From: a virus
Lineage: Duplodnaviria; Heunggongvirae; Uroviricota; Caudoviricetes
IMG/VR virus record: IMGVR_UViG_2671181056_000005
Coordinates: 1-23,040 of that record
Direction: 5' to 3' (one strand)
DNA length: 23,040 nucleotides
Shown here: positions 17,491 through 18,045 of the stretch, one piece after another
How the letters are laid out: the number at the start of each line of letters is the position of its first letter
Numbering within the stretch: the stretch's first letter is position 1
Program-made: the position numbers and the translations under genes
Notes under the pieces: generated by a model
Told to the model about the DNA's origin: nothing
The model's database searches: none
Seen by the model: only the letters and a program-made list of their open reading frames with translations

Positions 17491-17997
17491 TTAAGAGATT
17501 TTCAAAGTCTGCTTAGTGCCAGTCTTCTTAATGTTATTGAGGAAAGCTGCCGGAGGATTGCTTAACCAGTAGTAATGAAAACCACTTTGCATACTGTTAT
17601 AAGGAACAGTGACAGCAGCACCACCCAAATTAACGGTTATATTCCCTGCTCTACCGTTCTGGAGATATACAGCCATAGTAGGAGTACCGCCATTGAATTG
17701 ACCAACGATAACGCCAATCAGACGCCCTACGCCCACGTTTTCGGGGTTCTCCATTGACCCTTTACCGCGCATGTCAGTTACTGGATAGTTTGAAGCAGTT
17801 ACACCCCAGTTATTACCCAATGAAGTAGACCATGCAGCAGTAGCTACAACCGTATCCATACCACGACCACACATCGCGCTCATATTACCAGGAACACCAA
17901 CTTTTAACGCTTGCATAGCCTCACGCATCCATCGCTTGCCAGTTACAGAAACAGCCGATGATCCGACCCAACCGGGCTTATTAACGACATTTGCCAT
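17491..17997 (-). CDS. Hypothetical Gly-rich protein, 168 aa, inserted between the major tail and chaperone genes
   Basis: GGAG RBS 8 nt upstream; directly downstream of a terminator hairpin; no recognised motif. Confidence 0.55.
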   Translation of the reverse strand: MANVVNKPGWVGSSAVSVTGKRWMREAMQALKVGVPGNMSAMCGRGMDTVVATAAWSTSLGNNWGVTASNYPVTDMRGKGSMENPENVGVGRLIGVIVGQFNGGTPTMAVYLQNGRAGNITVNLGGAAVTVPYNSMQSGFHYYWLSNPPAAFLNNIKKTGTKQTLKIS

Positions 17998-18010
17998 TTT
18001 GATTACTCCA

Positions 18011-18040
18011 ATAAAAAAGCCCCACCATTAAGGCAGGGCT
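18011..18040 (-). terminator. Rho-independent terminator after the major tail protein gene
   Basis: Minus-strand RNA stem AGCCCUGCC / GGUGGGGCU (9 bp, two G-U), loop UUAAU, then UUUUUUAUU. Confidence 0.6.
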
Positions 18041-18045
18041 TAAAA

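Follow-up and report, generated by a model that had tools for sequence, protein, structure and literature searches.

A probable gp38-type tail-fibre adhesin encoded between the tail tube and tail chaperone genes of a temperate Escherichia coli phage

In phages λ and T5 the side fibres (Stf and the L-shaped fibre pb1, respectively) give a first, reversible contact besides that of the receptor-binding protein on the central fibre, and both bind their receptor by their own tip with no separate tip adhesin; pb1 matures by autocleavage of the S74 type. A different arrangement is known from T-even-like phages, where the N-terminal domain of gp38 anchors the monomeric adhesin on the tip of the gp37 fibre in a lock-and-key manner (PMC3157838). 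In S16, whose adhesin was crystallised while bound to the fibre tip, this domain consists of three helices, each of which places an apex tryptophan into pockets of the gp37 base (PMC6851490). Here we analyze a gene for a 168-residue protein in a stretch of 23,040 nucleotides (IMG/VR record IMGVR_UViG_2671181056_000005, positions 1 to 23,040; in the following the window) from a temperate, long-tailed E. coli prophage, where it is located between the tail tube gene and the tail assembly chaperone genes. With a probability of roughly 0.8 we take the product to be a gp38-like adhesin, as found in T2, T6 and S16, that would sit as a monomer on the tip of the tail fibre, and a member of the short subfamily PHROG 1121. 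The gene is not new in kind, orthologues being annotated as Gp38 automatically already, and only its genomic position is unusual.

All tail genes of the window are on the minus strand, and the list of open reading frames (ORFs) gives the order tube gene, hairpin, 168-residue ORF, G/T chaperone genes. An earlier note on this DNA had described a terminator hairpin followed by a glycine-rich ORF with its own GGAG ribosome-binding site at this place, all of which was confirmed; glycine accounts for 23 of the residues (13.7%). The ORF matches the Pfam family Gp38_N (“Phage tail fibre adhesin Gp38 N-terminal domain”, PF21721) at residues 4-42 with an E-value of 3.6e-15 and 56.1 bits compared to a cut-off of 25, and no other Pfam domain was found in it at E <= 0.1. 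The match to PHROG 1121 (“tail fiber adhesin”, E 1.5e-33) runs from residue 4 to 167 and covers positions 3-179 of the 181 in the profile. In several complete E. coli genomes the orthologues are called “receptor recognizing protein Gp38” by the Prokaryotic Genome Annotation Pipeline (PGAP). The best phage matches in tblastn were the “tail fiber adhesin” of the Shiga toxin (Stx) podophages P13374, 75/02 Stx and phi191, with 44% identity over the full length, followed at 32-34% by the gp38 proteins of several T-even-like myoviruses and at 30% by the adhesin of the Salmonella siphophage SSU5; many canonical gp38s align to residues 4-48 only, at approximately 64% identity. A phmmer search with the single protein against PDB sequences gave no match. 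The family was gathered by an exhaustive HMMER search, a word-indexed protein search having returned 6 near-identical matches only, and 18 short homologues were combined into a profile named A1. Since 17 distinct full-length orthologue sequences exist and the family matches are well above chance, the ORF is real.

The relationship to canonical gp38s lies in the N-terminal domain, which is 64% identical to residues 4-45 of RB49 gp38. Profile A1 matches the S16 gp38 crystal chain (PDB 6F45_D) at residues 1-64 only, with an E-value of 6.3e-12, and when aligned to canonical gp38s with hhalign, residues 2-53 were matched with a probability of 99.7% and nothing beyond. In an AlphaFold2 (AF2) model three short helices are predicted at residues 11-19, 24-30 and 39-42, and the conserved W10 and W23 stand immediately ahead of helices 1 and 2. 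The model was alignment-based and reached a predicted local distance difference test (pLDDT) score of 88.8; a single-sequence run gave a pLDDT of 40 and was discarded.

The remainder of the protein, residues 48-168, is predicted to fold as a β-sandwich, with a block-mean pLDDT of approximately 90-96 from residue 51 on. It shows nothing of the canonical adhesin body: PF05268 (canonical GP38) was not matched at E <= 0.1, where RB49 gp38 scores 242 bits, and poly-glycine runs or polyglycine motifs are absent from the 168-residue sequence. An Ig-like or carbohydrate-binding fold, suggested for checking in the earlier note, was not detected either, as no Ig-like, fibronectin type III (FN3) or carbohydrate-binding match was obtained by sequence (Pfam) or by fold comparison. 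Among the predicted viral structures in BFVD, the significant matches include short Gp38_N proteins of the Proteus phages phiP4-3 and PM2 as well as uncharacterised proteins of similar size from Burkholderia phage BcepIL02 and Vibrio phage VH7D. The C-terminal domain is an uncharacterised head on a known adaptor.

A gp38-type adhesin calls for a gp37-type partner, and a gene for a side tail fibre of this type is located upstream from the tube gene. The fibre is 70% identical to RB49 gp37 over 914 residues, a span that takes in both the tip ...AGRNGSFNDVYIR|SD and the S74 domain. Its C-terminal half is up to 83% identical to the gp37 protein of Shigella phage SSG23. The self-cleaving S74 chaperone occupies residues 954-1070 of the ORF as listed (19055..18705), with the Pfam Peptidase_S74 match at 954-1012, and the predicted cleavage site is ...NDVYIR|SDSRLK. 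With a fibre 70% identical to RB49 gp37 and an N-terminal domain 64% identical to RB49 gp38, both halves of a gp37-gp38 pair are present and resemble the same phage group. In the window the 5' end of the fibre gene has been cut by an insertion element. The listed fibre ORF (21914..18702) starts with 23 codons of IS5 sequence, intact fibre relatives are 1176 residues long and are aligned only from their residue 138 on, and approximately 130 N-terminal codons have been removed by IS5. Terminal repeats that we take to be those of IS5 were located at 21845-23040, the window ending exactly where the element ends, and a transposase-like ORF of 326 residues within it (21913..22893) is presumably IS5 InsH. 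Because the fibre gene is interrupted, the adhesin would have no virion-attached fibre as its seat and is probably idle in this strain, in which the fibre-adhesin system as a whole is probably inactive.

The arrangement is not peculiar to the window. In 19 complete E. coli genomes most of the region from tube to adhesin gene is matched with the order kept, the adhesin gene is present on 22 IMG/VR contigs, and the order tube, hairpin, adhesin, chaperone was found in all 24 related loci analysed, which together with the window contain 17 distinct adhesin sequences of 90-100% identity. When the region was compared at the nucleotide level with 50,697 phage records, no match was obtained, so that no sequenced phage is closely related, and a search of GTDB representative genomes with the tube alignment yielded no related loci. 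The sister prophages KSC64 (L005) and E275a (L003) and the IMG/VR loci L073-L084 have no adhesin gene, and here the tube terminator leads straight to the chaperone gene. The junctions are clean: a cassette ATTGGAGTAATCAAA-ATG...TAA takes the place of GTTTCCA between the T-run of the terminator and a conserved sequence ahead of the chaperone gene. Thus, of the insertion proposed in the earlier note, a variably present cassette in this slot holds true, while the terminator is no part of it. That note had also held that a gene conserved in all related phages as a structural component with a known role would speak against an insertion, and this is largely what was seen, as all 25 close relatives carry the gene and a structural role can be assigned to it.

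Other members of the family show that the slot can be filled differently. In L085, a more distant relative with a tube identity of 60%, a canonical glycine-rich gp38 of 256 residues (6139-6909) is encoded immediately behind the fibre gene and no gene separates tube and chaperone, giving the order fibre, canonical gp38, tube, hairpin, chaperone. In the metagenomic contig L032 the slot behind the tube gene is occupied by a gp38 N-terminus of the RB49 type (685-842). Taken together with the sister lineages and with P13374 and SSU5 (see below), these arrangements identify the slot as an adhesin locus whose position is lineage-specific. The same adaptor thus bears different heads, and does so at different positions within one prophage family: a short predicted β-sandwich here and a polyglycine domain in RB49, L085 and, probably, L032. 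In one database protein of 303 residues (P0031) a gp38 N-terminal domain and glycine-rich motifs are combined with a fibre tip (...GDFTSSASVYCNDVYIR) and a chaperone domain of the S74 type; it is either a recombinant or an assembly chimera. KSC64, PEC41 (L004, a locus without tube gene) and L073-L084 have an S74 fibre that is 41% identical. Between the fibre and tube genes of KSC64 (L005 6611-7517) and in PEC41 (L004 1-788) there are three ORFs of approximately 100 residues, with a single weak PHROG match to a family without known function; these ORFs could constitute a different system for the tip or for assembly.

The hairpin behind the tube gene has a 10-base-pair stem AAGCCCTGCCttaatGGTGGGGCTT with 6 G-C pairs, followed by the T-run TTTTTTATT, and was the strongest terminator-like site in a scan of the region. 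It folds at -17.6 kcal/mol (z = -3.2), and none of 200 shuffled sequences folded as well. Its position is kept in relatives with differing stems that still pair, AGCCATCCttcgGGGTGGCT in L003 and L005 and AGCCACCCtccgGGGTGGCT in L085. As the terminator is present behind the tube gene both in lineages that have the adhesin and in those that lack it, it is a feature of the tube gene and not of the inserted cassette. A near-identical hairpin is found after the capsid gene in relatives, which suggests that the two hairpins are attenuators behind the two most abundant structural genes. Near the adhesin gene the scan showed nothing resembling a promoter on the minus strand, nor did it show a terminator between the adhesin and chaperone genes. 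Without a promoter of its own and without a downstream terminator, the adhesin gene is read from transcripts that pass the tube hairpin, together with the chaperone and tape-measure genes, and such expression past an attenuator would fit a protein present in few copies per virion.

From these data the following mechanism can be proposed. The side fibre, a gp37 homologue, would trimerise by means of its own C-terminal S74 chaperone, which would then cut itself off at ...NDVYIR|SD and thereby expose the base of the fibre. One copy of the 168-residue protein would dock on this base through its three-helix N-terminal domain of approximately 50 residues, so that the β-sandwich faces outward and could bind a receptor on the cell surface. 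The adhesin would in this way provide a second host-recognition function beside the λ-J-like central fibre (see below), and its gene, with a ribosome-binding site of its own, would be co-transcribed with the chaperone and tape-measure genes past the attenuating terminator, which would fit a need for few copies per virion.

Several observations weigh against this interpretation. Neither Pfam nor hhalign revealed any relation between the C-terminal domain and the receptor-binding domain of canonical gp38s, and the comparison with solved structures returned no related fold; it is for this reason that we infer receptor binding only from the position of the domain. The pattern of variation is the reverse of that in the hypervariable canonical gp38: in a set of 25 orthologues residues 90-168 hardly vary, and the variation is concentrated in residues 20-43, where three allele types of the N-terminal domain occur, and in a loop at 74-81. 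The alleles do not correlate with the sequence of the fibre tip, which is nearly invariant. A similar tip, ...GNGNFNDVYIR, ends the fibre of the sister lineage that lacks gp38, and since such tips occur in S74 fibres of gp38-less sisters, the tip motif does not predict an adhesin. At the position of the third apex tryptophan of S16 the protein has Asn38/Met39, where RB49 has a tyrosine. The variation and the tip sequences do not contradict an adhesin, and we read the pattern of variation as that of a lineage which has kept a single receptor specificity.

Conservation of this kind would also suit a housekeeping role, and several phage records give the homologues the old name “distal long tail fiber assembly catalyst”, which would make the protein a fibre assembly factor that aids folding or maturation and is not kept in the virion. 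That name, however, derives from T4 gp38, a chaperone of the λ Tfa type that is unrelated in sequence, and no Tfa-type domain was found in the 168-residue ORF with Pfam, which excludes a chaperone of the T4 gp38 type. As the fibre already has its own S74 chaperone, and as the domain that is matched is the attachment domain of the S16 adhesin crystallised on the fibre tip (PMC6851490), we regard an assembly factor as improbable. A structural protein that decorates the tail tube, the second proposal of the earlier note, or that is bound elsewhere off the side-fibre tip (at the central fibre or the collar) would agree with a gene beside the tube gene and away from the fibre gene, and a β-sandwich, as predicted here, is a common fold type among decoration proteins. 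The lack of any Ig-like, FN3 or carbohydrate-binding match speaks against decoration, the homologous gene directly follows the fibre gene in other phages, and the N-terminal domain is specifically of the type that attaches to the gp37 tip, all of which leaves decoration with very little probability.

It could also be argued from the variable presence among sister prophages, the clean junctions and the location directly behind a terminator with a ribosome-binding site of its own that the gene is a moron, an accessory gene (for instance for lysogenic conversion, superinfection exclusion or defence) with no function in the virion; the earlier note had named a moron-like insertion as one possibility. 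Such a gene would not be expected to lack both a promoter-like site on its strand and a terminator of its own, and the sequence has no signal peptide or lipobox and gave no match in PADLOC. Against this stands also the strong homology to fibre adhesins, with a matching gp37-like partner in the same operon, and we consider a moron the least credible explanation of the gene. A gp38-type tip adhesin is therefore the interpretation that we retain. The features on which it is based are collected in Table 1 together with those of the surrounding region.

Table 1 Coordinates of the adhesin gene, its partner and the surrounding features (positions in the window unless a related locus is named).
Feature	Position	Strand	Evidence or remark
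gp38-like tail-fibre adhesin gene (probable), 168 residues, stop codon included	17491..17997	-	Pfam Gp38_N, PHROG 1121, PGAP names
N-terminal attachment domain, residues 1 to ~50	17848..17997	-	RB49 gp38 identity, 6F45_D profile match, hhalign, AF2 helices
C-terminal domain, predicted β-sandwich, putative receptor-binding module	17494..17847	-	residues 51-168; AF2
Shine-Dalgarno GGAG	18006..18009	-	8 nucleotides 5' of ATG; read from sequence, conserved in relatives
Intrinsic terminator/attenuator of tube gene	18010..18041	-	hairpin 18041..18017, T-run to 18010
Terminator equivalents in relatives	L003 ~6047-6080; L005 ~6045-6075; L085 ~7515-7545
Tail tube (major tail) gene, 157 residues	18645..18172	-	PHROG 158 “major tail protein” E 1.2e-20; weak Pfam tail-tube matches
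Candidate readthrough extension of tube gene	18046..18174	-	UGA 18174..18172, 41 in-frame sense codons, TAA 18048..18046
Capsid 3' ends with extension in relatives	e.g. L010 ~1868-2000, L004, L011, L017, L021, L022, L073-L084
Side tail fibre gene, gp37-like, truncated at its 5' end by IS5	18702..21844	-	RB49/SSG23 gp37 identity; Pfam Gp34_trimer, Peptidase_S74
IS5 copy, 1196 bp, within fibre gene	21845..23040	+	terminal repeat found at 21845, ending 23040
Tail assembly chaperone G, 102 residues	17448..17140	-	PHROG 344 E 1.4e-6; Pfam Phage_TAC_13 sub-threshold
T-like ORF, 116 residues, different frame from G	17110..16760	-	Pfam Phage_tail_T E 3.2e-4, below cut-off

The orthologue of the tube protein is named “phage tail tube protein” by PGAP. 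A protein of 277 residues in L005 (11151-11984) also matches the tail-tube family PHROG 158; its gene, which has equivalents in L001 and L002, precedes the fibre gene and is located outside the window. The prophage family may thus have two tube-like genes, the larger of which could form a collar for fibre attachment. The product of the putative G gene scored 21.3 bits against Phage_TAC_13, where the cut-off is 28.8. The T-like ORF has an open frame no farther back than the last 6 codons of G (window 17138-17160, minus strand), and no slippery heptamer of the form XXXYYYZ is present in the scanned segment 17050-17260; a possible -1 slip at A_AAG_TAA is the sole evident route to a G-T fusion. 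Beyond the T-like ORF there is a tape measure gene of 809 codons, followed by genes for the distal tail protein, the hub, a DUF6950 protein and the central fibre. The central tail fibre (1258 residues, 8821-12597, minus strand) has a C-terminal receptor-binding domain of the λ J type (Ig_GpJ_C, E 9.3e-34) and, judged by this similarity, is a second and independent receptor-binding protein of the phage. In the left part of the window (1-8300), an ORF of 564 residues (1297-2991) resembles a serine recombinase by eye and one of 499 residues (4965-6464) a helicase; there are also two cysteine-rich ORFs of 394 and 189 residues and an ORF of 117 residues, peptidase-like by eye, which besides the tube gene is the only gene ending in TGA.

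An unusual feature of the tube gene is its 3' end. The TGA stop codon is followed by an open, in-frame stretch, TNEELPLPEPEPLPEHEAVVIPEVEEVTAKATAKRSRKAKN, and its TAA is located three bases ahead of the hairpin. The encoded extension would be an acidic, proline-rich linker with a basic end ...TAKATAKRSRKAKN. TGA is rare in the window, where 19 of the 21 genes end in TAA and only the tube gene and one other in TGA. The TGA is kept and the extension is open in each of the 26 variant-A sequences (24 related loci, L003 and the window), including a divergent version (TFEEQPQPIQDEPTVIPELEVV...), with lengths of 114, 123 or 129 nucleotides that differ by whole-codon insertions or deletions and with a ratio of nonsynonymous to synonymous polymorphism (pN/pS) of 0.41. 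The capsid gene, which lies outside the window, has the same layout in each of the 35 E. coli-type loci where its 3' end was found, namely TGA, 28-45 in-frame codons, TAA and a near-identical hairpin; here the extension ends V[TK]AKAT[AV]K[KR]..K, a second in-frame TAA often comes behind the first, and pN/pS is 0.67. The tube protein of L085 has a sense-coded tail ...NVIPEAVAAKEK in the corresponding place, and the gp38-less sister lineage has TAA as the stop codon of its tube gene and lacks the extension. Of mononucleotide shuffles of these 126 nucleotides, only approximately 10% stay open.

These features could reflect programmed UGA readthrough that would give both the tube and the capsid protein a minor form with a longer C-terminus, with the acidic, proline-rich linker and its basic tip on the surface of the particle. 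We put this forward tentatively, as an explanation with somewhat less than even odds, and according to it the adhesin cassette would have landed just behind a recoding module closed by the hairpin. Extension of capsid or tail proteins by frameshifting is known from gene 10 of T7/T3 and from the Listeria phages PSA and A118 (PMC5009743). No report of stop-codon readthrough extending capsid or tube proteins in a tailed phage was found in the literature, and our search gave no capsid homologues with a sense-coded extension. A database protein of 198 residues (P0035), in which tube and extension appear fused, proved to be an artefact of gene calling with genetic code 4, the DNA having TGA at this position, and is not a sense-codon variant. 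A reading of the UGA as selenocysteine was set aside by eye, as the stretches following the UGA are not alike in the tube and the capsid gene and no shared hairpin was seen. If true, UGA readthrough would be an unreported mode of recoding for the display of surface extensions on a tailed phage, and a more consequential lead than the adhesin gene.

As to the adhesin gene, a complete T-even-style unit, consisting of a gp37-like fibre with a self-cleaving chaperone and a probable gp38-type tip adhesin, is here found on a temperate long-tailed E. coli prophage, which adds a further example of the exchange of fibre modules across phage morphotypes. The compact putative receptor-binding domain, uncharacterised and common to Stx phages and SSU5, could serve in host-range prediction or engineering; we found no work on the function or structure of members of the short subfamily. 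Compared with gp38 of the Straboviridae of the T2, T6, S16 and RB49 type, the protein has a homologous N-terminal attachment domain and belongs with a fibre of the gp37 type that carries an S74 self-cleaving chaperone, and in RB49, a T-even-like Krischvirus, g38 is likewise unlinked from g37 (PMC3157838). It differs from canonical gp38 in its length of 168 compared to approximately 250-260 residues and in the absence of a β-helix and of the polyglycine II (PGII) sandwich with its glycine-rich motifs and hypervariable segments, which are replaced by a predicted β-sandwich of approximately 120 residues, and its host virus is a temperate long-tailed prophage where the Straboviridae are lytic myoviruses. 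Accessory side fibres beside a λ-J-like central fibre are what the prophage has in common with other long-tailed coliphages, a likeness in which sequence relation was compared for the S74 domain only. The closest counterparts are the short adhesins of PHROG 1121 (ORF66 of P13374, 75/02 Stx and phi191, and SSU5_022), which share the two-domain architecture and are 170-178 residues long. In P13374 and SSU5 the paired fibre ends in ...NGSFNDV(Y/Q)IR|SD followed by Peptidase_S74, similarly to the fibre of the window, and there the adhesin gene directly follows the S74 fibre gene, whereas here the tube gene and its terminator intervene.

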